64,000 bases of DNA from NCBI GenBank assembly GCA_040389445.1, contig JAZJZX010000002.1, positions 256,102 through 320,101 on the forward strand, in the 5' to 3' direction. The notes under the pieces are model-generated. The model worked only from the letters and a program-made list of their open reading frames with translations, did not search any database and was not told the DNA's origin. Shown one piece after another: positions 3,224 through 48,574 of this stretch. Made by a program: the position numbers and the translations under genes. Each line of letters starts with the position of its first letter. The stretch's first letter is position 1. This DNA comes from Chloroflexota bacterium (lineage in GTDB: Bacteria; Chloroflexota; Limnocylindria; Limnocylindrales; CSP1-4).

Positions 3224-4326
3224 TCGAACTTGGCCGGACCGTCGTCACGATCGTCCTGTTCTTCGGAATCCTCGGCGCGCTCGTGGTCATTCACGAACTC
3301 GGCCACTTCATCGTGGCGAAGCTCTTCCGGGTGCGGGTCCTGGAGTTCGGGATCGGATTTCCGCCGCGTGCCAAGGTCCTTCGCGACGTCGGGGAGACGG
3401 TCTATACCCTGAACTGGCTGCCCATCGGGGGGTTCGTGAAGCTCGAGGGTGAGGATGGGGACGACGCCGACGACCCGCGTTCCTTTTCTGCCCAGGGCCT
3501 GCCGAAGAAGCTCCTGATCCTCGTTGCAGGCGTGGTCATGAACGTGGCCCTTGCGGCGGCCATCTTCACGGGGATCGCCCTGACGGGTGATCCGGCGATC
3601 GGCGTCTACGTCCCGTACGTCGAGCCGGGGTCACCGGCCGACACCGCCGGGATCCAGGTCGGTGACGTCATCGAGCGGGTGGACGGGCAGGCCTTCGGGG
3701 CGTTCGGGCCCGGCTCGGTCCTGGGCACTCTCCGCGACAGCGCCGGCACGACGGTGACGCTGACGATCCGTCGCGCGGACACCGTGATGAACCTGCCCGC
3801 CACCTTGCGCGCCCCGGAGCAGGTCAATGAAGGCAAGGGTGCTCTCGGGATCGGCAAGGTCGGCACCCTGCCGCTGGAACCACGCTCGACGCCCGACCGC
3901 ATCCGGTATTCGGTGGATGTGGCCCTGGCGCTCGGCGTGGAGCGCACCGAGTCGGCGATGCGGCTCATCGTGGACGGCGTCGGCCAGCTTGCGACGGCGA
4001 TTGTCACGCGGCCGACCGAGCCGCCGCCGGCATCGGGACCGATCGGCATCGCCACCCAGATCGGGGACATCTTCTGGACGCTCGGGCCCATCGTGACGCT
4101 GTACCTTGCCGGCATCCTGTCGGCCAACCTCGCGGTCGTGAACATCCTTCCGTTCCCGCCGCTCGATGGTGGCCGGATCCTCATCCTCGTTCTGAAGCGG
4201 ATGGCCGGCTCACGGCTGTCGCTGCGGGTCGAGCGGCTCACCTATGTGGTGGGCTTCGCGATGTTGCTGGCGTTTCTCGTGTGGGTGACCGGGTTCGACA
4301 TCGCACGGGGTCTCGCCGGGGGATGA
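3220..4326 (+). CDS. rseP: RseP/Eep-family site-2 zinc metalloprotease with PDZ domain
   Basis: [10 protein letters not shown] zinc site; PDZ region; C-terminal LDGG motif; TM helices; ATGA overlap with the dxr stop. Confidence 0.8.
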
Positions 4327-5573
4327 CCACGCCCGACCGCGTTCGGCCGATGCGGCGCCCGACGGTCTCCGTCGACGTCGGAGGGGTGCTCGTCGGCAGC
4401 GCCCATCCGATCGTCGTCCAGTCGATGACGAATACGGACACAGTCGACGCCGACGCCACCGCGATCCAGGTGGCACGGCTCGCACACGCCGGCAGCCAGC
4501 TCGTACGGGTCACGGTGAACACCGACGCCGCGGCCGCGGCCGTTCCCGAGATCCTTCGCAAGCTCGCCGATCTGGGGGTCGCGGTCCCGATCGTCGGGGA
4601 CTTCCACTACAACGGCCACAAGCTCCTGATGGATCATCCGGCGACGGCAGCCGGCTTGGCCAAGTACCGCATCAACCCCGGCAACGTCGGCGCCAAGCGT
4701 CACGACGAGCATTTCCAGACGATCGTCCGCGTTGCCATCGAGCACGACAAGCCGGTTCGGATCGGCGTGAACTGGGGCTCATTGGACCAGCAGCTCCTGA
4801 CGGCGTTGATGGACGCGAACGCGAGGCTTGCTGCACCTCGGGACGCCCGCGACGTGATGATCGAGGCGATGATCGAGTCGGCGATGCGGTCGGCCGAGCT
4901 CGCAGAGCAGACCGGTCTGCGGCACGATCGGATCATCGTCTCGGCCAAGGTGTCACGGGTCAGGGACCTCGTGGATGTCTATCGCCTGCTGGCGACCCGC
5001 TCGGACTACCCGCTGCATCTGGGCTTGACCGAGGCCGGCCTCGGCATGAAAGGCGTTGTGGCGTCGACCGCCGGGATCGCGATCCTTCTCGAGGAGGGGA
5101 TCGGGGACACCATCCGGGTGTCGCTGACGCCGGCCCCGGGCGGAGAGCGCGAGGAAGAGGTTCGCGTGGCCCAGCAGATCCTTCAGTCCATGGGCCTGCG
5201 CGCATTCCTCCCGCAGGTCAGCGCGTGTCCGGGTTGCGGGCGCACGACCTCGACGTTTTTCCAGGAGATGGCGGAGCGAATCCAGGCGCATCTCCGTGAC
5301 CGGATGACCGAATGGCAGCAGACCCGTCCGGGCGTCGAGGAAATGACCGTTGCCGTCATGGGCTGTGTCGTGAACGGTCCGGGCGAATCGAAGCACGCGG
5401 ACATCGGGATCAGCCTGCCGGGCACCTTTGAGGACCCCGTCGCCCCGGTGTTCATGGACGGGAAGCTGGACCGGACGCTGCGAGGAGAGGGCCTGGTGGA
5501 CGAGTTCATCGACGTCCTGGAGGCCTACGTGGCGCGTCGCTACCCGGGCGACCCGGAGCACGTTCCGGCATGA
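4323..5573 (+). CDS. ispG: 4-hydroxy-3-methylbut-2-en-1-yl diphosphate synthase (GcpE)
   Basis: IspG TIM-barrel N-terminus ([12 protein letters not shown]) and C-terminal 4Fe-4S cysteines (CPGCGRT ... GCVVNGPGE); ATGA overlap with rseP. Confidence 0.9.
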
Positions 5574-5599
5574 CCGCCGTTCGACGGTCCACGGGTCCG

Positions 5600-5612
5600 G
5601 GTGTATACTCCG
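5600..5612 (+). promoter_or_regulatory. putative -10 element (TGTATACT) in the nusA leader
   Basis: Extended -10-like TGtaTACT at 5602-5609, about 90 nt upstream of the nusA start. Confidence 0.3.
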
Positions 5613-5641
5613 GCCCGGAATCGAATGGCCGCCTCCGAAGG

Positions 5642-5668
5642 ACGTGGGTGACCCCCACGTATTTTTTT
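5642..5668 (+). terminator. intrinsic terminator/attenuator hairpin in the nusA 5-prime leader (ACGTGGG-tgacc-CCCACGT followed by ATTTTTTT)
   Basis: Perfect 7-bp GC-rich stem with a 5-nt loop followed by a 7-T run, 25 nt before the nusA start. Could terminate ispG and/or act as a NusA autoregulatory attenuator. Confidence 0.5.
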
Positions 5669-5693
5669 CGGGCGACCGAACCGCAGACGGACA

Positions 5694-7139
5694 GTGATGG
5701 AGGGCGATGCGACCGTGAGTCGAGATTTCATCGGTGCCCTCCTCCAGCTCAACGCTGAGAAGCAGGTCCCGCGCGAGCAGTTGATCAGGACGGTCGAGGA
5801 CGCGATCGCTTCCGCCTATCGGCGCATCGCGAACGAAGAGGACATCCACGTCGAGATCGATGCCGACAGCGGCAAGATTCGCGTCTTCCGCGCTCGAACC
5901 GTGGCCGCGGACGTGGAGGACCCCCTCACGGAATTCACGCTCGAGGACGCGCGGGCCGTCAAGCCGGACGCCCAGATCGGCGAGCTCGTGGAGACGGAGC
6001 AACTCGATGGTGACGTGTTCGGGCGGATCGGTGCCCAGACCGCCAAGCAGGTTGTCCTGCAGCGCCTTCGGGAAGCCGAGCGGGACGTCGTCTACGACCA
6101 GTTTGCGAGCCGCGAAGGCGAATTGATCACCGGCACGGTGAACCGGGTCGAACCGCGCGCGATCATCCTGGATGTCGGCAAGGGCGTCGAGGGGATCCTG
6201 GCGACCACCGAGCAGTCACCGCTCGAGCACTACCGGATCGGACAGAACGTCAAGGCGTTCGTGCTCGAAGTGCGACGCCTGCCCAAGGGTCCGGCGCTCT
6301 TCGTGACGCGGACGCACAAGGGCTTCCTCAAGCGCCTGTTCGAACTCGAAGTCCCGGAGATCCACAGCGGTACGGTCGAGATCCGGGCGATCGCGCGTGA
6401 GGCCGGCAGCCGCAGCAAGGTTGCCGTGGGCTCGCGCCAGGAGGGCCTCGATCCGGTCGGCGCAACCGTCGGGCAGCGAGGCTCGCGCGTCCAGGCGGTG
6501 GTCGCGGAGCTCGGCGGCGAGAAGATCGACGTGATTCCCTGGAATGACGACGCAGCCGCCTTCGTTGCCAATGCACTCTCGCCGGCCCAGGTCCTGTCCG
6601 TGGATATCGATGTCGAACACCGGATCGCGAACGTGACGGTGCCCGAGCGGATGCTCTCGCTGGCGATCGGCCGGGAGGGTCAGAACGCCCGTCTCGCCGC
6701 GCGACTCACGGGCTGGCGGATCGACATTCGGAGTGACGTGTCGGTCGCGGAGGCGCGGGCCGCCGAGGCCGCGGGATCGCCCGACGCCCCTTCGACGCCG
6801 ACGCCGGCTGCCGAGATTCCGATCGACATGGCCGATGCCGTGGCCGTCGCCTCCGTCGATCCTGCCACCGAAGTCGAGCCGGCGGCGGACGCAACCGTGG
6901 CTGAGGCTCCGGTCCGGAAGACTCGAGCCCGCGCGAAGAAGGTTGAGGCCGAGGAATCCTCGACGCCGGCCGTCGAGGAAGCCCCGGCCGGGAAGACCCG
7001 AGCGCGAACGGCCAAGGTCGTCGTCGAACCTTCGGGTCGTGCGACCGCGGAACCTTCGGGTGATCCAACCGCGGATGTCCCAATTGCCAGGACGCGAGCG
7101 CGCACGAAGAAGGTCGCCACCGAGGAGGTGGCGTCGTAG
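5694..7139 (+). CDS. nusA: transcription termination/antitermination factor NusA with an unusual Ala/Pro/Glu-rich C-terminal tail carrying three basic TRAR(A/T)KKV repeats
   Basis: NusA N-terminal domain, S1 and KH1/KH2 sequence (…GRIGAQTAKQVVLQRLREAER…, …VAVGSRQEGLDPVGATVGQRGSRVQAV…, …AIGREGQNARLAARLTGW…). Confidence 0.9.
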   Translation: MMEGDATVSRDFIGALLQLNAEKQVPREQLIRTVEDAIASAYRRIANEEDIHVEIDADSGKIRVFRARTVAADVEDPLTEFTLEDARAVKPDAQIGELVETEQLDGDVFGRIGAQTAKQVVLQRLREAERDVVYDQFASREGELITGTVNRVEPRAIILDVGKGVEGILATTEQSPLEHYRIGQNVKAFVLEVRRLPKGPALFVTRTHKGFLKRLFELEVPEIHSGTVEIRAIAREAGSRSKVAVGSRQEGLDPVGATVGQRGSRVQAVVAELGGEKIDVIPWNDDAAAFVANALSPAQVLSVDIDVEHRIANVTVPERMLSLAIGREGQNARLAARLTGWRIDIRSDVSVAEARAAEAAGSPDAPSTPTPAAEIPIDMADAVAVASVDPATEVEPAADATVAEAPVRKTRARAKKVEAEESSTPAVEEAPAGKTRARTAKVVVEPSGRATAEPSGDPTADVPIARTRARTKKVATEEVAS

Positions 7140-7150
7140 GCGCGGGGGTC

Positions 7151-7453
7151 ATGACGGCCCCCGAGCGCAGGATCCCGACGCGTTCGTGCGTCGCCTGTCG
7201 GACGGCGCGTCCGAAGCGGGACCTCCTGCGGGTCGTACGCGCCCCGGATGGTGCCGTGGCAGCAGATCCGACGGGCAGGCTGAACGGGCGCGGCGCGTAT
7301 GTGTGCCGTGACCTTGCCTGCATCACGAACGCCTTGAACCGAGGCGCCCTCAGCCGGGCCCTCCATACCCCGGTCCGCGAGGGGCTCCGCGAAGAGCTCC
7401 TCGCCACGGACCCGCATCTGAAACTTGAAGGAGGAGCCCATGGCCAGGAGTAG
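7151..7453 (+). CDS. ylxR: YlxR/RnpM-family RNA-binding protein (DUF448)
   Basis: RSCVACRTARPKRDLLRVVR...GRGAYVC motif typical of YlxR; conserved position between nusA and infB. Confidence 0.75.
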   Translation: MTAPERRIPTRSCVACRTARPKRDLLRVVRAPDGAVAADPTGRLNGRGAYVCRDLACITNALNRGALSRALHTPVREGLREELLATDPHLKLEGGAHGQE

Positions 7454-9347
7454 GAGCGGCACCCGCGGCCGTCGTGGGCCCCGCAAGCCACCGCGTCGAG
7501 ATGGATCGTTCGCACCGGGCGGCGTCCAGACGCTGGACCCGCGCGAGCGTGGCGCGGTCGAGTTGCCCGCGACGATCACCGTCAAGGAGCTGGCAGAACG
7601 CTTCGGTGTCAACCCCGCGGACGTGATCCGCGAGCTCATCAAGAGCGGCATCTTCGCGACCATCAATCAGCTGATCGACCGCGACACCGCCTCGCTCGTC
7701 GCCTCCGAACTGGGCTATGAAGTCGCCGAAGCCGATGCGTCCGCCGGTGGCGCCGCGGGCGATGAGACCGAGGACGGCTCCTCGCCGGATGCCACGAAGG
7801 AAGAGCTCTTCACCGAGGACGACGACGCGAACCTGGTGGTGCGCGCGCCCATCGTCACCGTCATGGGTCACGTGGACCACGGCAAGACGAGCCTGCTGGA
7901 CGCCATCCGATCCACGACGGTCGCGGCGGGTGAACGAGGCGGCATCACCCAGCACATCGGCGCAAGCGAAGTGACGAAGGACGGCCGCCGGGTCGTCTTC
8001 CTCGACACGCCGGGCCACGAGGCATTCACCGCCATGCGGGCGCGCGGTGCCAAGGTGACCGACATTGCGATCGTCGTCGTGGCCGCCGATGACGGCGTGA
8101 TGCCCCAGACACTCGAGGCCATCAGTCACGCCAAGGCGGCCAAGGTGCCGTTGATCATCGCCCTCAACAAGATGGACAAGCCCGATGCCAATCCGGACCG
8201 GGTGAAGACCGAGTTGACCGAGGCCGGCGTGGTGGTCGAGGAATACGGCGGAGACACCCCGCTCGTTCCTGTATCGGCCAAGAGCCGGCTCGGGCTTGAC
8301 GACCTCGTGGACATGGTCCTGCTGGTCGCCGATCTCCAGGATCTGAAGGCGAACCCCAACCGACCGGCCATCGGCACCATCGTCGAGGCGCGCATGGACA
8401 AGAACCGTGGTCCGGTGGCCACCGCGCTCGTCCAGACCGGGACGCTTCGGGTCGGCGACATCTTCGTCGTCGGCGAGACCTTCGGGCGCGTCCGGGCGCT
8501 CGAGAACGACAAGGGCAAGCGCATCAAGGAAGCGGGTCCGGCGACGGCCGCGGTCGTGCTCGGGCTCTCCCACGTGCCCGAGGCCGGCGACATCCTGCGC
8601 GCCGTGGTGGATGAGAAAGCTGCCCGGACGATGGTTGAAGGCCGCAAGGCCGACATTGCGGCCCGGAGCGGCGAGGGGAGCGGTCGCGCGACCCTGGAGG
8701 ACCTCTACCGACAGATCCAGGCCGGCCAGGCCAAGGAGCTCCGGATCATTCTCAAGTCCGACGTGTCGGGCTCGCTCGGGGCGATCACCCACTCGCTGGG
8801 GCAGCTGGCAACCGACGAGGTCAAGATCAACATCCTGCACGAAGGTGCCGGAGAGATCACCGACAACGACATTCTGCTCGCCTCGGCCTCGAATGCCATC
8901 GTGGTCGGCTTCAACACGAAGATCAGCGACACCGCGCGACGCGCCGCCGAGACGGAAAAGGTCGACGTCCGGCTGTACGACATCATCTACCAGCTCACCG
9001 ACGACATCGAGAAGGCCCTTGGTGGCCTGCTCGAGCCGGAGCTCGTCGAGGCGATCGAAGGCCGGGCCGAGGTCCGCAAGCTCATCAAGGTAGGGAAGTC
9101 GACGGTCATTGCGGGCTCCTATGTCACGGACGGGCGGATGATCAAGGGCGGTGCCCGGGTCTGGCGCGGCGGCAAGATCATCGTCACGGACCGGATCGAG
9201 TCGCTCCGCCGCTTCCGGGACGATGTGCGCGAAGTGGCCCAGGGTTTCGAGTGCGGCATCGGTCTCGTCGGCTTCTCCGATCTGGCGGAGGGCGACGTGA
9301 TCGAGTGCTTCAGCACGCAGTCCGTGAGCCGATCGCTGTCGTCCTGA
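7440..9347 (+). CDS. infB: translation initiation factor IF-2 (short N-terminal region)
   Basis: G-domain motifs ([24 protein letters not shown]); IF-2 C-terminal domains; RBS GAAGGAGGAG before ATG 7440 (alternative TTG at 7425). Confidence 0.9.
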
Positions 9348-9381
9348 CGGGCACACCTGCCCGCCAACGGCCGCACCTGCG

Positions 9382-9942
9382 ATGACGCAACGCACCGACC
9401 GCATCGACGAACTGATCCGCCAGGAGATCGGCGAGATCATCGCGCGCGAAATCTCGGATCCCCGCATCGGGTTCGTGACGATCACGGACGTGGAGACCAC
9501 CCGCGATCTGAGCCACGCCAAGGTGTCCGCCAGCTTCATCGGCACGGCCGCCGAACGCGCCCTGGCGCTTGCAGCGCTCGGGCACGCGATGCCGTTCATC
9601 CGGCACGAACTCGGCAAGCGCCTCCGGATTCGGCGCATCCCGGAGCTGCATCTCCAGGCGGATGACTCGCTCGTGCGCGGGACCAGGGTCCTCCAGCTCA
9701 TCAACGATCTGGGTTCCGGAGCCGACGCCTTGATCGCCTCGAGCCCGGAGGACACGTTGCCGACGCCCGTTGCACGACTGCCGCACGAAGGGGACGCCTC
9801 GGAGCCGGATCCGCCACCGGCGCTCCCGGACATGCCCGCCCATGCGGGCGGCGACCGACGGCCCGGCAAGCGCGGGCGAACCCGTGCGTCGACGGGGCCC
9901 CGCGGCAAGGCGACGTCGCATCGTCGGACGAACCGATCATGA
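9382..9942 (+). CDS. rbfA: ribosome-binding factor A with C-terminal extension
   Basis: RbfA KH-like core (RIDELIRQEIGEII...GFVTITDVETTRDLSHAKV) followed by a roughly 70-aa low-complexity tail. Confidence 0.85.
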   Translation: MTQRTDRIDELIRQEIGEIIAREISDPRIGFVTITDVETTRDLSHAKVSASFIGTAAERALALAALGHAMPFIRHELGKRLRIRRIPELHLQADDSLVRGTRVLQLINDLGSGADALIASSPEDTLPTPVARLPHEGDASEPDPPPALPDMPAHAGGDRRPGKRGRTRASTGPRGKATSHRRTNRS

Positions 9943-10961
9943 GTGTGCGTCTCGACCCCTGGTTGCCCGCGGTTCCGACCTCGGTCGTGGCCAGGCTGGT
10001 GAACGCGCGCAACGCTCTCGTCGTGAGCCATGAGAACCCGGATGCCGACACCCTCGGGGCGGCGCTTGGAATCCGCGAGATCCTCGCGGCGCGCGGTGTG
10101 CCGGCGACCCTGGTCTGCGCGGACGTCCCGCCACCCCTGTACAACTTCCTGCCCGGTATCCTCGAGTTCCGGACGGACCCGGATCTGAAGGAATCGTATG
10201 ACCTCCTGGTCATCGTCGATTGCGGGTCGCTCGATCGCGTGGGGGCGGTGCGTGATCGGCACCCCGACCTGTTCGCCGCCCTGCCGACCGTCGTCATCGA
10301 TCATCACGCCTCCAACGGTGCGGCCGGGCCGAGTGACTGGGTCGACCCGGGTTCCGCGGCCACGTGCGAGATGGTCGCCCTGCTGGCCGCCGCGCTCGGA
10401 ACTCCGCTGACGAGCGGCGCGGGCGCCCTGGCGACCGCGCTGATGGCCGGGATCGTGATGGACACCGCGACCTTCGCCCACCCGAATGCCACGCCGCGAA
10501 CGCTGGCCGTTTCCGCTGCGCTCGTCGAGGCGGGTGCGCCGCTGGCCGAGATCTCGCGCCTGCTGTACCGCTCCAAGCCGGATGCCCAGCTCCGCCTGTT
10601 CGGTCGTGTCCTGGATCGACTCCAGTCGAGCGCCGGTGGTCTCGTCATCCATTCGACCCTGACGACTGCCGATGTCACGGAAATCGGTGCCCTCAGCAGC
10701 CACTCCGAGGGGATCATCGACCTCCTGTCCCAATCCGAAGTGGCCGAGGTTGCCATCCTGTTCAAGGAGGCGGGTCCGACGACGACGCGCATCTCCGTCC
10801 GTACCAAGCCGGGCGGGGTCGACGCGACAGTCCTGACCGGATTGTTCGGAGGCGGTGGGCACGCCCGGGCGGCCGGAGCCAGCGTCGATGCTGATCCAGC
10901 GCAGGCCCGCGCGCGCGTACTCCCGGAAGCCGAGCGCCTCGCTCTCGCCGTTCGACGCTGA
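9939..10961 (+). CDS. nrnA: DHH/DHHA1 phosphoesterase, NrnA-like bifunctional oligoribonuclease / pAp phosphatase
   Basis: DHH motifs (HENPDADTLG, VIVDCGS, IDHHASN); DHHA1 C-terminal GGGH motif; ATGA overlap with rbfA. Confidence 0.8.
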   Translation: MSVRLDPWLPAVPTSVVARLVNARNALVVSHENPDADTLGAALGIREILAARGVPATLVCADVPPPLYNFLPGILEFRTDPDLKESYDLLVIVDCGSLDRVGAVRDRHPDLFAALPTVVIDHHASNGAAGPSDWVDPGSAATCEMVALLAAALGTPLTSGAGALATALMAGIVMDTATFAHPNATPRTLAVSAALVEAGAPLAEISRLLYRSKPDAQLRLFGRVLDRLQSSAGGLVIHSTLTTADVTEIGALSSHSEGIIDLLSQSEVAEVAILFKEAGPTTTRISVRTKPGGVDATVLTGLFGGGGHARAAGASVDADPAQARARVLPEAERLALAVRR

Positions 10962-10963
10962 CC

Positions 10964-11953
10964 ATGGCTCGTCGGCCGGACCCCGGCGGCCTCGAAGGGG
11001 TCCTCATCGTTGCCAAGCCGGCTGGTCCGACGTCGCACGACGTTGTGGCGCTGGTCCGCCGCTTGAGCGGGACGCGACGCATCGGCCATGGCGGCACACT
11101 GGACCCCTTCGCGTCCGGCGTCCTGCCGCTGTATCTCGGGGGAGCGACGCGCCTCGTCGAGTACCACCTCGGAGACCGCAAGCGGTATCGCGCCACCGTC
11201 TGCTTCGCGGCGTCCTCGACCACGGACGATCTCGACGGTGAATTGACGCCGGTGGCCGGTCCCATCCTCGAATCGGCAGCGGTGTCGGCTGCGCTTGCGG
11301 CATTTCGCGGTGAGATCAGCCAACGGCCACCCGTCTACTCGGCCATCCAGGTCGGTGGACGCCGTGCGTACGCCCTGGCCCGTCAAGGTGCTCCGCAGAA
11401 TCTGCCGGAGCGCGTGGTGACGATCCATGCGCTCGACCTCATCGCGTGGAATGCCGATGATCCGGCCCGACCGATCGCGATCCTGGACGTGGCCTGCTCT
11501 GCGGGAACCTACGTTCGCGCGCTGGCCCGCGATCTCGGGGCCGCCGTCGGCAGCGCCGCGTACCTTGGGGCGCTCATCAGAACGGCAAGTGGCCCCTTTG
11601 AACTCGGCCGAGCGGTGACCCTTGAGCAGTTGCGCGCGGCGGCGGTCGATGGCCCGGAAGGACTGGCCCCCCTGCTGCTGCCGTCCGATGCCGGCCTCGA
11701 CTCGCTCCCGGCGGTTCGCCTCACGGCGCCGGAGATCCGCGATGCGGCCATGGGTCGGTTCGTCCGGCCGGAGGCCGGCGTGACAGGCCTGCCTTCGGAC
11801 GCACCACTCCGGTTGGTGGATGAAGGAAACCGGATCGTGGGGATCGGCGTACTTGATGGACGTCGGATCGCCCCGTCGAAGATGCTGAGCGGGGTCCATG
11901 CAGCATCGGACGATCCCGAGCCGGCCGGGCCGGAAGTCGGACATCCTGCATGA
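10964..11953 (+). CDS. truB: tRNA pseudouridine(55) synthase
   Basis: GVLIVAKPAGPTSHDVV ... GHGGTLDPFASGVLPLYLG catalytic Asp motif; C-terminal PUA-like region. Confidence 0.9.
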   Translation: MARRPDPGGLEGVLIVAKPAGPTSHDVVALVRRLSGTRRIGHGGTLDPFASGVLPLYLGGATRLVEYHLGDRKRYRATVCFAASSTTDDLDGELTPVAGPILESAAVSAALAAFRGEISQRPPVYSAIQVGGRRAYALARQGAPQNLPERVVTIHALDLIAWNADDPARPIAILDVACSAGTYVRALARDLGAAVGSAAYLGALIRTASGPFELGRAVTLEQLRAAAVDGPEGLAPLLLPSDAGLDSLPAVRLTAPEIRDAAMGRFVRPEAGVTGLPSDAPLRLVDEGNRIVGIGVLDGRRIAPSKMLSGVHAASDDPEPAGPEVGHPA

Positions 11954-12798
11954 CTGAGCCACGGCGGAACCATCCCGATGTCGTGCACGGCATCGATGCC
12001 CTCGGTCGCGAACACGGGCGGCTGTTCGTGGTGGTCGGGGTATTCGATGGATTGCACCTGGGGCACCTGTACCTGCTGCGGCACCTGCAGGCAGCCGCCG
12101 CGTCCCACGCCGCACGCTCCGCGGTCATCACCTTCGATCATCATCCGGACGAAATCCTCATCGGCGCGGCTCCGCCGCTCCTGTGCGACCCGGAGGAGCG
12201 TCTCGACCTGCTCGCCGGCGCCGGCGTCGCCGTGACCGTCGTGCAGACCTTCGATTCTGCTCTTCGCATGACGAGTTACGACGCATTCATTCGACGAATC
12301 GCCGATCGCGTCGACCTGGCCGGGTTCCTCATGACGCCCGATGCGGCGTTTGGGCACGAGCGCCGCGGGACTGCGGAGAGCGTGGCCGACCTTGGCCGCT
12401 CGCTCGGCTACGACGTCGTCGTGGTTCCGCCGATGCAACTCGCCGGCCGGCCGGTGCGAAGTGCCGAGATCCGCGCTGCGATCGAGGCAGGCAACATTGA
12501 CGCGGCATCCACGATGCTCGGACGGCCCTACGCGGTCGCCGGATTTGCCGACCGCGCCGACGGGCGGGGTCAGGTCGTGCACTTCCCGATGCCGGTCGCG
12601 CTTCCGCCGGCAGGGGAGTACCCCGTGGCCGTGCAACCGAGCGCGGGCGGTCCAGCCGTCTCCGGCGAGTTCACCGCCGTCGTCCGGCCGGACGGTACGA
12701 TCGAGCTGCCGACGGACGCCGTCAACCCGGCCCCGAACCGCATCCGTGTCACGTTCCGTGGCCGTGGCCCGAGCCCGATGGCCATGGATGGTGACTGA
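11950..12798 (+). CDS. ribF: FAD synthetase (FMN adenylyltransferase) with shortened, degenerate riboflavin-kinase-like C-terminal domain
   Basis: N-terminal nucleotidyltransferase motif (VVGVFDGLHLGHLYLL). The C-terminal roughly 95 aa start with LGRPY but lack the canonical PTAN motif and the distal half of the RFK domain. Confidence 0.75.
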   Translation: MTEPRRNHPDVVHGIDALGREHGRLFVVVGVFDGLHLGHLYLLRHLQAAAASHAARSAVITFDHHPDEILIGAAPPLLCDPEERLDLLAGAGVAVTVVQTFDSALRMTSYDAFIRRIADRVDLAGFLMTPDAAFGHERRGTAESVADLGRSLGYDVVVVPPMQLAGRPVRSAEIRAAIEAGNIDAASTMLGRPYAVAGFADRADGRGQVVHFPMPVALPPAGEYPVAVQPSAGGPAVSGEFTAVVRPDGTIELPTDAVNPAPNRIRVTFRGRGPSPMAMDGD

Positions 12799-30549: not shown

Positions 30550-30641
30550 CGGTTTCGGGAAAGCGTTCCAGGCGGTCGACCGGTGCTCAGGCACCCGGAG
30601 TGGGTGCGCCGCGCGGATGACCGCCCGGCAGGACGATGGGC

Positions 30642-30946
30642 TACTGGCCGCCAGAGACTGCAGGGACGATGTGGACATCGGATCCGGGAGCCACCTCCGT
30701 GTCCAGGGTGGCCCGTTCACCGGCCACGTACACGTTGAGGTGCGTTCGGACGGCCGGACCGGCGTCGATGAGGCGGTCTCGAATGCCGGGGAACGGCTTC
30801 TCGAGCGCGTCGATGACCTCACGGACCGTGGAGCCGGCGACATCGACCTGCCGCTCGCCGCCCGGAAACAGGGCAACGAGGCTTCGCGGAAGGTGGACGC
30901 GAACCGCCGTGCGCGGGGCCGGCGTCGTCCGAGCCGGATCAGTCAA
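30642..30946 (-). CDS. MoaD/ThiS-like beta-grasp sulfur-carrier-type protein ending in ...VSGGQ
   Basis: C-terminal 85 aa match the MoaD/CysO pattern (VRVHLPRSL...VDVAGSTVREVIDAL...THLNVYVAGERA...HIVPAVSGG). Start uncertain (TTG 30946, 5 nt after the stop of the upstream BNR gene). Confidence 0.5.
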
Positions 30947-32015
30947 GAACGGCCGCCTCAACAGACCAGATCGGCGGCAGGTTCTCGGCCAGGAGCCGCC
31001 ACGTCTGTCCCTCGTCGGCACTTCCGTACAGCTGGCCCGTCGCCGTTCCGAAGTACACCCCGACTGGATTGAGGCGATCCACGGCCATTGCCTCGCGAAG
31101 GACACCGAGATAGGCGTCCTCCTGTGGCAGGCCGTCGCCGGAGCGGATCCAGGAATCGCCCCCGTCGTGCGTCCGCCATACGGCCGCACTTCCTTCGGGC
31201 ATATACCGCCCTCGATCGGCGCCGTTGAGCGGGATCGTCCACACGGTCAGCGGATCGCGCGGGTGCGCCGCCATCGGGAACCCGAACTCGGACGGAAGGC
31301 CCTCCGTGATCTCGTTCCAGTGGAGCCCACCGTCGCTGGAGCGGTAGACGCCGCAATGGTTCTGCTGATAGAGGTGCTCACCGCCGTCGGCGGCCATGAC
31401 CAGCTTGTGCACGCATTGTCCGAAGTCCGGGTACTGGACGGGCGCGAAATCCGCCCGAACGCCGCTGTTTCGGGTCTGCCACGTCATGCCCCCGTCCTGC
31501 GTCTCGAAGGCTCCGACCGCGGAGATCCCGACCCATACACGATCGGGGTCCGATCGATGCGGGACGATCGAGTGGAGGATCAGACCGCCGGCGCCCGGCT
31601 GCCACTCCGGGCGGGTCGGGTGGTTCGTCAGGCCCTCGACGTGCTGCCACGTCGCACCGCCATCGTGACTGCGGAACAGGCCGGCGGGCTCGACGCCCGC
31701 GTAGATCACGCCGTCGGTCGCGGTCACGTTCCAGACCGTCTTGACCTTGGCACCTTCGTCGCCGTAGGTCAGGCCGTCGCTCGAGTGGGTCCAGGTTGCC
31801 CCGATGTCATCGCTGCGCCAGACCGCCGGTCCGTACCACGGGCTGCCGCCCCCGGCGAGGATGGCGCCACGCTTCGGGTCAATCGAGATGTCGTGGATCG
31901 GCCAACCCTCGCACAACGGGCCCCGGAGCCGCCAGTCGCGGCGATCCGCATCGCCGTGAAGGATGAACGCCCCCTTGGGCGTTCCGATGAGCAGGGCCAG
32001 TCGCTGGGTCATCAC
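30939..32015 (-). CDS. BNR/Asp-box repeat beta-propeller protein (Ycf48/sialidase-like fold)
   Basis: Six S-x-D-x-G-x-T-W repeats (SDDIGATW, SHDGGATW, TQDGGMTW, SSDGGLHW, THDGGDSW, SADEGQTW). Confidence 0.7.
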   Translation of the reverse strand: MMTQRLALLIGTPKGAFILHGDADRRDWRLRGPLCEGWPIHDISIDPKRGAILAGGGSPWYGPAVWRSDDIGATWTHSSDGLTYGDEGAKVKTVWNVTATDGVIYAGVEPAGLFRSHDGGATWQHVEGLTNHPTRPEWQPGAGGLILHSIVPHRSDPDRVWVGISAVGAFETQDGGMTWQTRNSGVRADFAPVQYPDFGQCVHKLVMAADGGEHLYQQNHCGVYRSSDGGLHWNEITEGLPSEFGFPMAAHPRDPLTVWTIPLNGADRGRYMPEGSAAVWRTHDGGDSWIRSGDGLPQEDAYLGVLREAMAVDRLNPVGVYFGTATGQLYGSADEGQTWRLLAENLPPIWSVEAAVLD

Positions 32016-32134: not shown

Positions 32135-32791
32135 ATGGACCCATCCGACATCGCCCTCCGGAACGAGACCTACGGACAGTTCGTCACGCTCGGACGAGCC
32201 CCCACGGCAGGAGAGATTGCCGGCGCGCTCGGCCTGCCGGAAGGCGACGTCCACGCCGGCTGGCGGCGCCTCCATGACGGCCATGCGCTGGTCCTGGATG
32301 CCGCTGGCGAGATTCGGATGCTGAACCCATTCGCGGCTGGGCCGACCCCGTTTCGGGTCGATGCCGCGGGTCGCTCCTGGTACGCCAACTGCGGCTGGGA
32401 CGCCTTCGGGATCGGATCCGCCATGCATGTCGACTCCACGATCCACACGGAGTGCGCCGATTGCCACGAACCGCTCGCCATCACGGTTCGCGACGGGCTT
32501 CCGGAAGACACTGATCTCGTGTTCCACGTCCTCGTTCCGGCGGTCTCGTGGTGGCAGGACATCGGCTTCACCTGAAGCACCATGCTGCTCTTCCGGTCGG
32601 AAGCACATGTCACGAGCTGGCTCAAGGGACGCACGGGCGGAGCCACGATCTCCATCACGAAGCTCGCCGAGCTCTCGAATGCCTGGTGGGGAGATCGGCT
32701 GGCGGCCGAATGGCGACCCCATACGCGCGAAGGGAATCAGGCGATCCTGGATCGACTCGGGCTCACGGATCCGTTCTGGCGCCTCGGGTAG
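32135..32791 (+). CDS. organomercurial lyase MerB-like protein interrupted by a single in-frame TGA (32573-32575): selenocysteine candidate or nonsense pseudogene
   Basis: MerB catalytic Cys-x-x-Asp motif (WYANCGWDAFGIG, compare LYAWCALDTLIFP). The two track ORFs 32084-32575 and 32582-32791 are in the same frame, separated only by TGA plus 2 codons. The combined length of about 218 aa matches MerB, and the TGA falls where MerB has its second catalytic Cys (FCC). Confidence 0.55.
32590..32603 (+). promoter_or_regulatory. small hairpin CUUCCG-GU-CGGAAG starting 15 nt after the in-frame TGA of the merB-like gene (SECIS-like apical stem-loop candidate)
   Basis: 6-bp perfect stem with a GU dinucleotide loop at +21/+22 from the UGA, resembling the SelB-binding apical loop geometry of bacterial SECIS elements. 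Confidence 0.3.
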
Positions 32792-32855
32792 CGGTCGCCG
32801 GTGCCACGCAGCGGGCGCCTATGATCGGGCGCCGCGGGCCGCCGGGGCCGCCCGA

Positions 32856-33374: not shown

Positions 33375-35087
33375 ATGACTTCCTTGACTCCCCCTCCAGC
33401 GGAACGCGGTATTGCCGAGTCGACCGGTACGGTCGCTCGCCATCTCGTTGCGTGGATCCTTGGGCTCGGGCGGAACGCGTGGCTGTTTCCGCTGGATGTG
33501 ACGTTCCGCTTCGTCGGGATTCGCTACGGCTGGCTCAAGGCACTCTTCCAGACGGTGCCGCCGCAGGTTCTGGCCATCACGGGTCGGTTGCGTGCGGAAC
33601 GGGCGGCCTGGCGAGCCCTGCATCGCGTGCCGGCCTATCGTGCACGGCTGCGGAGTGCCGGGATCGATCCGGACCGGCTGCCCCCGGCCGGCATCCTCGG
33701 TGCCGTGCCCGAGACGGACAAGCGCTCCTACATCGATCCGTACGCAATGGAAAGCCGCTGTCTCGATGGTCGGATCACGTTCAAGGGCGTCACGATCGAC
33801 GAATCGAGCGGCTCCACCGGGACGCCCTACAACTGGATCCGTGGTCAGGCCGAGCGGACGGTCGCGCAGCGCAACATCGCATTCTTTGCCCGCTATGCGT
33901 TCGGCGGCGAGGACCTCGTGACGCTGAACGCGTTTTCGATGGGCGCCTGGGCGACAGGCTTCAACATGTCGATCGGGATGACCCGGCACGGACTCGTGAA
34001 GTCGATCGGGCCGGACATTCCGAAGATCCTCTCCTCGCTGCCCATCCTGGGGCCACGCGTCCGCTACCTGATCTGCGGTTACCCGCCGTTCCTCAAGCAT
34101 CTCCTCGACGAGGGCGACCGCGCCGGCTTCCCGTGGGCCGAGTACGAGATGTGCGCCCTCGTGGGCGGGGAGGGGATGGCCGAGGAACTGCGAGACCGGC
34201 TGCTCGAACGGTTCGAGGTCGTCTACTCGGGCTACGGCGCGACCGATCTGGAGATCGGGATGGCCGGCGAATCGCCGGTCAGCGTGGCCATTCGCCGGCT
34301 CGCCCGGGCGCGACCGGACATTCGCGCCGCGCTGTTCGGTGACGACCCACGTCTGCCGATGGTCTTTCAGTACAACCCGCTCATCCACCACCTCGAGGTC
34401 AACGAACTGGGCGAGGTTCTCTGCACCGTGAGCCGCCTCGACCTCATGACGCCGCGCATCCGCTACAACGTGCACGATGCCGGCGGTCTGCTCCCGTTCG
34501 CGTCCGCGCGGCGGGCCCTGGCCGCTTTCGGGATAGATATCCGTTCACTCGGCTCATTGCCCGAGGTCGCCGGCCCACGAGGCCCGTTGCCGTGGTCGGC
34601 GCCGATTCCTCTGCCGTTCGCTTACATCTACGGCCGCCGTGACGCCACGATCAGCGTCATGGGCGCGAACATCTATCCCGAGGACATCGAAACGATCGTG
34701 TACGGCGATCCGGCGCTCGCGCGTCGGCTGGAATCGTTCCTCCTGACGGGCCTCACCGACTCGACCGGGACGCCACGACCGGGAATTGCGCTCGAATTGC
34801 GGGCCCACGAACCGTCCGACCAGTCGCCCGGCGAATCGCTCGGCGAAGGGCGCGACCAGTCGCCCACGGAGCGGCCCGACGAGACAGCCGGCGACGACTG
34901 GCAACAGGGGCTCGCGGCGACGTTCCGCGATCGCCTCAAGGCCCTGAACGCGGACTACCGCGAAGCGCTCCAGGAGTTTCCAGCGGCCATGGAACCAATC
35001 GTGACCGTCCACGCGTTCGGCGACGGCCCGTTCGCAGGAAACGCGGGCCGGATCAAACCTCGCCGGCTCATCCTGCCCCCGGCGTAG
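33375..35087 (+). CDS. adenylate-forming enzyme, phenylacetate-CoA ligase (PaaK) / coenzyme F390 synthetase-like family
   Basis: AMP-binding motif DESSGSTGTP; PaaK-like architecture; 570 aa. Confidence 0.7.
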   Translation: MTSLTPPPAERGIAESTGTVARHLVAWILGLGRNAWLFPLDVTFRFVGIRYGWLKALFQTVPPQVLAITGRLRAERAAWRALHRVPAYRARLRSAGIDPDRLPPAGILGAVPETDKRSYIDPYAMESRCLDGRITFKGVTIDESSGSTGTPYNWIRGQAERTVAQRNIAFFARYAFGGEDLVTLNAFSMGAWATGFNMSIGMTRHGLVKSIGPDIPKILSSLPILGPRVRYLICGYPPFLKHLLDEGDRAGFPWAEYEMCALVGGEGMAEELRDRLLERFEVVYSGYGATDLEIGMAGESPVSVAIRRLARARPDIRAALFGDDPRLPMVFQYNPLIHHLEVNELGEVLCTVSRLDLMTPRIRYNVHDAGGLLPFASARRALAAFGIDIRSLGSLPEVAGPRGPLPWSAPIPLPFAYIYGRRDATISVMGANIYPEDIETIVYGDPALARRLESFLLTGLTDSTGTPRPGIALELRAHEPSDQSPGESLGEGRDQSPTERPDETAGDDWQQGLAATFRDRLKALNADYREALQEFPAAMEPIVTVHAFGDGPFAGNAGRIKPRRLILPPA

Positions 35088-48160: not shown

Positions 48161-48574
48161 ATGATGGATGATGGCGCGGTGACGAACGACTTGAGCGAAC
48201 AGACGGGCGGAGACACGCGAATCGATCGCTGGTTGTGCGCGGTGCGCCTCGTCAAGACCCGGCCCATTTCAACGCAGCTTTGTGAAGCCGGGCACGTCCG
48301 CGTCAACGGCAACCCGGCCAAGGCGTCAACCAGGGTTCGCGCCGGCGACGTGGTGCATGCGCTGATCGCCGAACGTGAGCGGATCGTCGAGGTCGTGCGG
48401 CCGATCGAAAACCGCGTCGGCGCGCCGGTCGCCGCCACGTGCTACATCGACTCCAGCCCGCCGCCGGTCATCCGGGAAGCCGACCCCGGGATCAAGGTGG
48501 TCCGTGGCGAGGGCCGGCCGAACAAACGTCTTCGCCGCGAGCTCGATCGGATCCGGCGGCCCGGACGCGGCTGA
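48161..48574 (+). CDS. S4-domain RNA-binding protein (Hsp15 / ribosome-associated heat-shock protein-like)
   Basis: RIDRWLCAVRLVKTRPISTQLCEAGHVRVNGNPAKASTRVRAGDVV S4 motif. Confidence 0.7.
   Translation: MMDDGAVTNDLSEQTGGDTRIDRWLCAVRLVKTRPISTQLCEAGHVRVNGNPAKASTRVRAGDVVHALIAERERIVEVVRPIENRVGAPVAATCYIDSSPPPVIREADPGIKVVRGEGRPNKRLRRELDRIRRPGRG

Follow-up and report, generated by a model that had tools for sequence, protein, structure and literature searches.

A probable selenocysteine-containing family of MerB-fold proteins in Chloroflexota and Actinomycetota

A gene related to the organomercurial lyase MerB is interrupted by a single in-frame TGA codon at 32135-32791 of a 64,000-nucleotide (nt) stretch of contig JAZJZX010000002.1 (assembly GCA_040389445.1; Chloroflexota, CSP1-4). 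This whole stretch is referred to here as the window, and positions given without another label are positions within it. It is highly probable (roughly 0.88) that the region is one gene for a 218-residue selenoprotein with the MerB fold, in which the UGA would be decoded as selenocysteine (Sec). The case is built from the reading frame, from the equivalence of the UGA column to a catalytic cysteine of MerB, and from the conservation of the UGA, of a hairpin behind it and of the coding sequence that follows. It also draws on a predicted MerB fold for a cysteine-containing orthologue and on the Sec machinery of related genomes that carry the gene.

The interrupted reading frame and its relatives

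An ATG at 32135 on the forward strand opens a run of 146 sense codons that reaches TGA at 32573-32575. Another 71 sense codons follow before the frame closes with TAG at 32789-32791. The earlier note on this DNA had described two same-frame open reading frames (ORFs), split only by the TGA and two further codons, that together would give a protein of about 218 amino acids (aa), the length of MerB. Reading of the codons bears this out: 32135-32791 is a single 218-codon frame with the TGA as its sole interruption, MerB itself has 212 aa, and the downstream ORF of the window's ORF track (69 aa) begins at ATG 32582, two codons past the TGA. The Cys-x-x-Asp block that had been noticed in the first part is present as WYANC86GWD89, with the Cys codon at 32390-32392 and the Asp codon at 32399-32401. 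The distance from Cys86 to the TGA is 61 codons, also as described. The upstream 146 aa are 100% identical to a database protein named 'organomercurial lyase [Chloroflexota bacterium]' (P0001), and an independent Logan assembly contains a sequence identical to the window gene. The parts of the gene, all on the forward strand, are as follows.

32135-32572, +: N-terminal 146 codons of the MerB-like gene, encoding a winged-helix-like N-terminal domain plus the first half of the catalytic core
32390-32401, +: Cys86-Gly-Trp-Asp89 codons, the C-x-x-D catalytic block (profile alignment to MerB 1s6l/3f0p and MerB2 5c17)
32453-32464, +: Cys107-Ala-Asp109-Cys110 codons, the C-x-D-C motif (invariant alignment columns)
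32573-32575, +: in-frame UGA, predicted to be read as selenocysteine, residue 147 (conservation, Cys homologues, alignment to MerB Cys159)
32589-32603, +: candidate selenocysteine insertion sequence (SECIS)-like element with U17, a 5-bp stem (32590-32594 with 32599-32603) and a GGUC loop at 32595-32598 (invariance in 81 sequences, RNAalifold)
32576-32791, +: C-terminal 71 codons and TAG stop at 32789-32791 (codon-position variability, Pfam and PDB alignments)

When the TGA is read as one residue, the protein matches the Pfam MerB family (PF03243) with 86.5 bits against a gathering threshold of 27. It extends over residues 66-185 and spans the TGA. On its own, the N-terminal part reaches 55 bits, and the 69-aa tail by itself gives no significant score. 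Alignment of the family profile to PDB sequences places WYANC86xxD89 on LYAWC96ALD99 of MerB (1s6l/3f0p). The TGA column (T-[TGA]-S) falls on the first Cys of the MerB F158-C159-C160 dyad, that is, on Cys159, and the entry for the MerB C160S mutant (3f2g) settles which Cys of the dyad is which. All three columns of the MerB catalytic triad, Cys96/Asp99/Cys159, are thereby matched by C86/D89/UGA. The best PDB match is MerB2 (5c17), on which C86/D89/U147 correspond to C102/S105/C165. The earlier note's assignment of the TGA to Cys159 is upheld by these profile alignments, which add Cys165 as the MerB2 equivalent.

C86 and D89 are invariant in both family alignments (A1 and A2), and the C-x-D-C motif (Cys107, Asp109 and Cys110) is invariant in the clade. 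Cys107 aligns with MerB Cys117. Cys110 is without a MerB counterpart, and may be an additional metal ligand or a relay thiol. By its sequence, the protein is a member of the MerB superfamily that has all three conserved MerB cysteine columns, with selenium predicted at position 159.

A structural model was considered for P0004, a Cys-containing orthologue that is 56% identical to the window protein. Its AlphaFold (AF2) model has a predicted local distance difference test score (pLDDT) of 81 and a predicted template modelling score (pTM) of 0.78. A Foldseek comparison of this model with the PDB gives 11 significant matches, all of them MerB or MerB2 (E 6e-10 to 7e-6; template modelling scores 0.47-0.74), and nothing besides MerB and MerB2 at E < 0.1. 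Identity to the solved structures is 16-21% in the Foldseek alignments. The orthologue is thus predicted to adopt the MerB fold. Together with the Pfam match and the PDB alignments, the model agrees with the earlier claim that homology continues past the TGA.

The interruption recurs throughout the family. A protein search returned 1346 relatives. Among the 120 best matches, 118 stop exactly at the TGA column (...DIGF/YT), mostly at 146 aa, and the other two (P0003 and P0004) are full-length with Cys at this column (...YTCTTMNLF...). A second search, seeded with a Cys form, found 4222 clusters at E <= 1e-10; its best 120 include about four Cys forms (P0004, P0003, P0121 and the partial P0123), and nearly all the others are cut at this column, at 146-147 aa. 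Several of these 146-147-aa entries, for example from Gaiella, Gaiellaceae and Limnocylindrales, carry the NCBI name 'organomercurial lyase'.

At the nucleotide level, a search of contigs representing one genome per species found a relative encoded in 518 species-level genomes. The 80 best loci among them were fetched and combined with the window to give 81 sequences. These 80 loci come mainly from Limnocylindrales and other Chloroflexota, and also from Gaiellaceae, Thermoleophilia, Acidimicrobiia and other Actinomycetota. Every one of them has a stop at the column in question, and across the 81 sequences the codon is TGA in 80 and TAG in one. The true terminal stops of the same genes serve as an internal control. 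They are TGA in 43, TAG in 35 and TAA in one, so for a plain stop one would expect TGA in only about 54% of cases. The search for relatives of the Sec or Cys type that the earlier note had called for yields both, with Cys at the column in four homologues (P0003, P0004, P0121 and P0123).

In 70 of 79 loci, 71 sense codons separate the TGA from the next in-frame stop. Variability at the first, second and third codon positions is 0.227/0.187/0.449 in this tail, compared with 0.253/0.217/0.44 over the 60 codons that precede the TGA. Since the pattern is indistinguishable on the two sides, the tail must be translated in frame and be under purifying selection. Immediately before the UGA, 80 of the 81 sequences have Thr and one has Ser; immediately after it they have Ser, Gly or some other residue, never Cys.

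The single TAG at the column (L060:6442-6444) belongs to a long-read metagenome-assembled genome (MAG) of an uncultured actinomycetotal organism. Its hairpin and downstream ORF are fully intact. Possible explanations of the TAG are an assembly error, a recent inactivation and something stranger.

In a midpoint-rooted, unbootstrapped neighbour-joining tree, the four Cys forms make up one clade that lies nine nodes deep among Sec forms from Actinomycetota. Because the Cys clade is nested in this way, and because one Cys form (L086) retains part of the hairpin, Sec looks ancestral in the family and Cys looks like a single late reversion.

The hairpin behind the UGA and selenocysteine genes

The palindrome CTTCCGGTCGGAAG lies at 32590-32603. 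The earlier note had drawn it as a 6-bp stem capped by a GU loop. The palindrome stands and this folding does not, because a loop of 2 nt cannot form. The actual hairpin consists of a 5-bp stem, in which 32590-32594 pair with 32599-32603, and a GGUC tetraloop at 32595-32598. The spacing between the UGA and the loop is 19 nt, and GGUC occupies nt 23-26 when counted from the U of the UGA.

Nucleotides 17-31 on this count (U CUUCC GGUC GGAAG) are invariant in all 81 sequences, except for an A30-to-G change in nine that keeps the pairing as a U.G wobble. In the Sec forms, the hairpin codons read xTC TTC CGG TCG GAR, and the next codon always begins with G. Elsewhere in the same genes, the shares are 27% for CGG among Arg codons, 34% for TCG among Ser codons and 19% for GAA among Glu codons. 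Since the block is invariant despite this mixed codon use, its synonymous sites must be frozen by something besides the protein.

The Cys forms supply the decisive comparison. They encode identical or similar amino acids in this stretch, and the corresponding codons are CTG TTT CGC TCC GAG in L082, CTC TTT CGA TCT GAG in L087, CTC TTC CGG TCT GAA ACC in L086, and CTT TTT CTC GCC GAA (Leu-Phe-Leu-Ala-Glu) in L083. All four break the block, and its invariance is therefore tied to the presence of the UGA. The L086 gene (L086:174-833; P0121) retains most of the hairpin block and looks like a recent Sec-to-Cys conversion. An Arg-Ser pair at +7/+8 past the Sec (32594-32599) is invariant in the Sec forms and is replaced by Leu-Ala in P0003 (L083:6001-6693). 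This pair seems to be held in place by the RNA hairpin, whose GGUC loop is supplied by the CGG TCG codons, and not by protein function.

Given the 81-sequence alignment, RNAalifold yields exactly the 5-bp hairpin, and in a subclade from Actinomycetota the stem is lengthened to 7 bp. The model of the bacterial SECIS (bSECIS) summarized in the Fig. 2 legend of PMC13188914 has a loop of 3-9 nt with a G in its first two positions, a stem of 4-16 bp, a spacing of 16-37 nt and a minimum free energy (MFE) of -7.5 kcal/mol or below. The hairpins described here have the 4-nt GGUC loop, stems of 5-7 bp and the 19-nt spacing. Their constrained MFE averages -13.9 kcal/mol, is at or below -7.5 in 79 of 81 sequences, and is -8.6 for the window. 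By this fit and by the invariance of the block, the suggestion of a bacterial SECIS-type hairpin past the UGA holds.

Genes for Sec synthesis and insertion are found in related genomes that carry the MerB-like gene. In the Limnocylindrales MAG GCA_035308445.1 (whole-genome shotgun prefix DATGGQ01), a TGA orthologue is on contig 39 (L031), and contig 11 of the same assembly (L089) carries selB (6562-8499), selA (8503-9858), the gene for tRNA-Sec (9874-9972) and selD (10001-11083). In another Limnocylindrales MAG, the MerB-like TGA gene sits inside a selenium locus (L030:1-5649), which is arranged as follows.

L030 1-41: tRNA-Sec fragment
L030, between the tRNA-Sec fragment and selD, -: hydrolase-like ORF
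L030 859-1983: selD
L030 2656-3309: MerB-like TGA gene
L030 3988-3990: TGA of fdhA at the canonical NNIDSCNRT-U-HAPSVAGL site

Two further contig sets, found through close SelD homologues (L090 with L091; L092 with L093), have the same selB-selA/selD cluster and a split fdhA. The tRNA scan covered L090 and L091, and a tRNA-Sec gene is present in both. L092 belongs to a MAG with the whole-genome shotgun prefix JBKKDM01. The fdhA genes beside these sel loci (L090:14148-16148; L091:7377-9377; L092:13393-15354) are called as pairs of genes of about 100-113 and 522-542 aa. They are presumably further unannotated UGA-Sec sites.

No tRNA-Sec gene adjoins the MerB-like gene in the first 60 of the 80 loci. 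In the window, the only SelB-like match, a weak tblastn hit at 7851-8675, proved to be the GTPase domain of translation initiation factor IF2 in a nusA-infB operon, and not SelB.

Alternative readings, possible function and genomic context

Several results weigh against a selenoprotein. The 60 nt past the UGA in the window fold no better than shuffled sequences (z = +1.27), and 32400-32800 has no Rfam match at E up to 10. Compensatory changes are absent from the stem among the 81 sequences, which leaves it without covariation support. No Sec machinery gene or tRNA is present in the 64-kb window. The P0004 model is weak around the Cys/Sec column, with pLDDT below 50 at residues 139-144. In addition, no merA, merR or merT/P was seen within about 10 kb of the window gene by Pfam labels, which weakens a specific function as an organomercurial lyase. 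Regarding the fold of the RNA, the MFE structure of the single window sequence differs from the conserved hairpin. Four core pairs of the 7-pair helix are invariant and a fifth varies solely by U.G wobble. At the two outer positions, pairing is missing in a share of the sequences that runs from about one third to over one half; the lower stem is not conserved. Because covariation is lacking, the structural argument is carried by the invariance of synonymous sites and by the loss of the block in the Cys forms.

These observations must be set beside three other explanations of the interrupted frame. The gene might be split, such that the UGA is a true stop and re-initiation at ATG 32582 produces a separate 69-aa chain that assembles with the first into a MerB-like fold. 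The ATG at codon +3 is indeed invariant in 81 of 81 sequences, and gene callers predict the 69-aa ORF at this site. However, the Met is also kept in the uninterrupted Cys forms and so is a structural residue, and the spacing from stop to ATG never varies. A plain stop should also vary in the way that the terminal stops do, yet TGA is nearly universal. The invariant hairpin lies past the ATG and is lost exactly when Cys replaces the stop, which itself coincides with the catalytic Cys column. A split gene is therefore very improbable. No greater chance is given to read-through of the UGA without selenium, for example by a near-cognate Cys or Trp tRNA, with the hairpin acting as a generic stimulator of read-through. 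This proposal gains from the lack of Sec genes in the window itself, and sequence analysis alone does not decide which amino acid is inserted. It leaves unaccounted for a SelB-type GGUC loop at a SelB-type distance, matching the fdhA SECIS of the same lineage, as well as the complete sel loci in carriers and the embedding of the gene in a sel locus in one genome.

A lone in-frame stop in a MAG would, in isolation, look just like a pseudogene or an assembly or sequencing error. The stop recurs at this column in 80 independent assemblies from many studies, the independent Logan assembly has the identical sequence, and the 71 downstream codons are under purifying selection. By the recurrence of the stop and the selection on the tail, an explanation of this kind is effectively refuted, and it is the least credible of the three.

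If the gene encodes a selenoprotein, then codon 147 would be decoded as Sec in the course of translation, and the hairpin within the coding sequence (5-bp stem, GGUC loop starting 19 nt past the UGA) would recruit SelB and Sec-tRNA(Sec). The product would have an active-site triad of Cys86 (Cys96 in MerB), Asp89 (Asp99) and Sec147 (Cys159). By analogy with MerB, an organometallic substrate would be bound through its metal by the thiolate and the selenolate, and the carbon-metal bond would be cleaved as Asp89 donates a proton to the leaving carbon. Sec insertion, lyase activity and substrate are all properties that we infer from sequence comparisons. Organomercurials are the default guess for the substrate. 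The affinity of mercury for selenium is very high. This affinity, and the absence of MerA and transport genes nearby, leave room for substrates other than organomercurials.

The surroundings of the gene are varied. Clustering of the neighbours of 83 loci reveals no mer or SAO context and no conserved neighbourhood besides a divergently transcribed BNR-repeat protein, which recurs in 12 of the 83 loci, including the window. There, this BNR/Ycf48-like repeat protein (358 aa; 30939-32015, reverse strand) is encoded upstream of, and divergently from, the MerB-like gene. A ThiS/MoaD-like small protein is encoded on the same strand just downstream of the BNR gene (region 30641-32015, reverse strand). 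Just downstream of the MerB-like gene is a 570-aa ORF (33375-35087) that has no Pfam match on record. It contains the stretch SSGSTGTPYNW, which we take to resemble adenylate-forming enzymes of the GH3 or coenzyme F390 synthetase type.

Farther away, window positions 4281-12798 hold housekeeping genes: an ispG-like gene, nusA, infB (7425-9347), a gene for a DHH-family protein, truB and ribF. The one other in-frame TGA candidate, at 48572, turned out to be where an S4-domain/Hsp15-like ORF normally ends, and it adjoins a gene on the opposite strand. The scan for other genes with in-frame TGA codons was not exhaustive, and its filter on third-position GC content (GC3) missed the MerB-like gene as well.

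Comparison with SaoL, MerB and known SECIS elements

The earlier note knew of no Sec-containing MerB. This does not hold, since the MerB-like selenoprotein SaoL (NCBIfam NF040728; Haft & Gwadz, bioRxiv 10.1101/2022.07.06.499078) has Sec at the Cys159 position. SaoL is also listed in PMC9312934 and PMC13188914. Only anaerobes have been reported as its hosts, for example Clostridioides, Brachyspira and Syntrophobacter, and substrates besides organomercurials have been argued for it (Haft & Gwadz, bioRxiv 10.1101/2022.07.06.499078).

The window protein and SaoL share the PF03243 fold and Sec, predicted here, at the MerB Cys159 position. Both are routinely cut at the UGA in databases, and neither belongs to a classical mer operon. 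They differ in other respects. The window protein scores 42.6 bits against the SaoL cut-off of 140, in a partial match to residues 32-121. Its motif is T-U-S/G, compared with C-U in SaoL. The nine-gene SAO neighbourhood, which has SaoE, SaoC and an ABC transporter among its members, was not seen within about 10 kb, and there is no ABC transporter, efflux pump or Cys-Cys-COOH protein among the neighbours; both statements rely on Pfam labels and clustering, and not on hidden Markov models for Sao proteins. The hosts are MAGs of Limnocylindria/Chloroflexota, Gaiellaceae, Thermoleophilia and Acidimicrobiia. By score, motif, locus and hosts, the window gene is not a SaoL.

The replacement of Cys159 by Sec is thus a concept already known from SaoL, and what appears to be new is the family of the window gene. 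This family extends to 518 species and thousands of protein clusters and is almost exclusively Sec-containing, as judged by the UGA. NCBIfam has no model that covers it, SaoL is the only MerB entry in a 2026 inventory of prokaryotic selenoproteins, and nothing in the literature searched ties Limnocylindria to selenocysteine. MerB is not mentioned in the main texts of deep-Sep and BSepDB, and the clade may already be listed in BSepDB or in a groundwater-MAG survey. We give about even odds to the broader proposal that this is a second, unrecognized family of Sec-dependent MerB-fold proteins apart from SaoL. As proposed, Sec is ancestral and dominant in the family, which occurs in more than 500 soil and freshwater species of Chloroflexota (Limnocylindria) and Actinomycetota. 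Its members would be mis-annotated as a 146-aa lyase and a 69-aa orphan, and would act outside of mer operons, possibly on another organometal(loid) substrate.

If the selenoprotein reading is true, thousands of database entries, which survive as 146-147-aa 'organomercurial lyases', lack the catalytic selenocysteine together with the final third of the protein. Selenium would be placed at the metal-binding site of a putative carbon-metal lyase in MAG lineages of Chloroflexota and Actinomycetota. We take these carrier lineages to be abundant in soil and fresh water, where, on the broader proposal, a link between selenium and metal chemistry would have been overlooked. The protein would be a testable candidate for turnover of organomercury or other organometals without a mer operon in these habitats. 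The Sec and Cys forms offer a natural experiment at MerB position 159, and the Arg-Ser pair of the Sec forms, set against Leu-Ala in P0003, would be a textbook-quality instance of an RNA element that fixes protein residues.

Canonical MerB (plasmid R831b; 1s6l, 3f0p) and Bacillus megaterium MerB2 (5c17) share with the window protein the fold, the catalytic Cys-x-x-Asp block, the column of the second catalytic Cys and the structural Cys117 column. The window protein differs from canonical MerB in having predicted Sec in place of Cys159 and in being without Cys160, and its family has the additional invariant Cys110. It scores 30.1 bits against the NF009710 cut-off of 193 and 25.6 bits against the NF033555 cut-off of 200, and no merA, merR or merT/P adjoins the gene. 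The window gene is not a canonical MerB.

The hairpin has a close parallel in the SECIS of E. coli fdhF. Both elements lie inside the coding sequence directly past the UGA, and in both the apical tetraloop is GGUC (nt 22-25 in fdhF, nt 23-26 here). Position 17 is in each case an unpaired U that directly adjoins the upper stem on its 5' side, and this U17 has a role in the fdhF SECIS. They differ in the upper stem, which has 5 bp here and 7 bp in the subclade from Actinomycetota. Closer to the window gene in lineage, the fdhA gene in the Limnocylindrales selenium locus L030 has a GGUCU loop at nt 22-26, which resembles the GGUC loop of the MerB-like gene.

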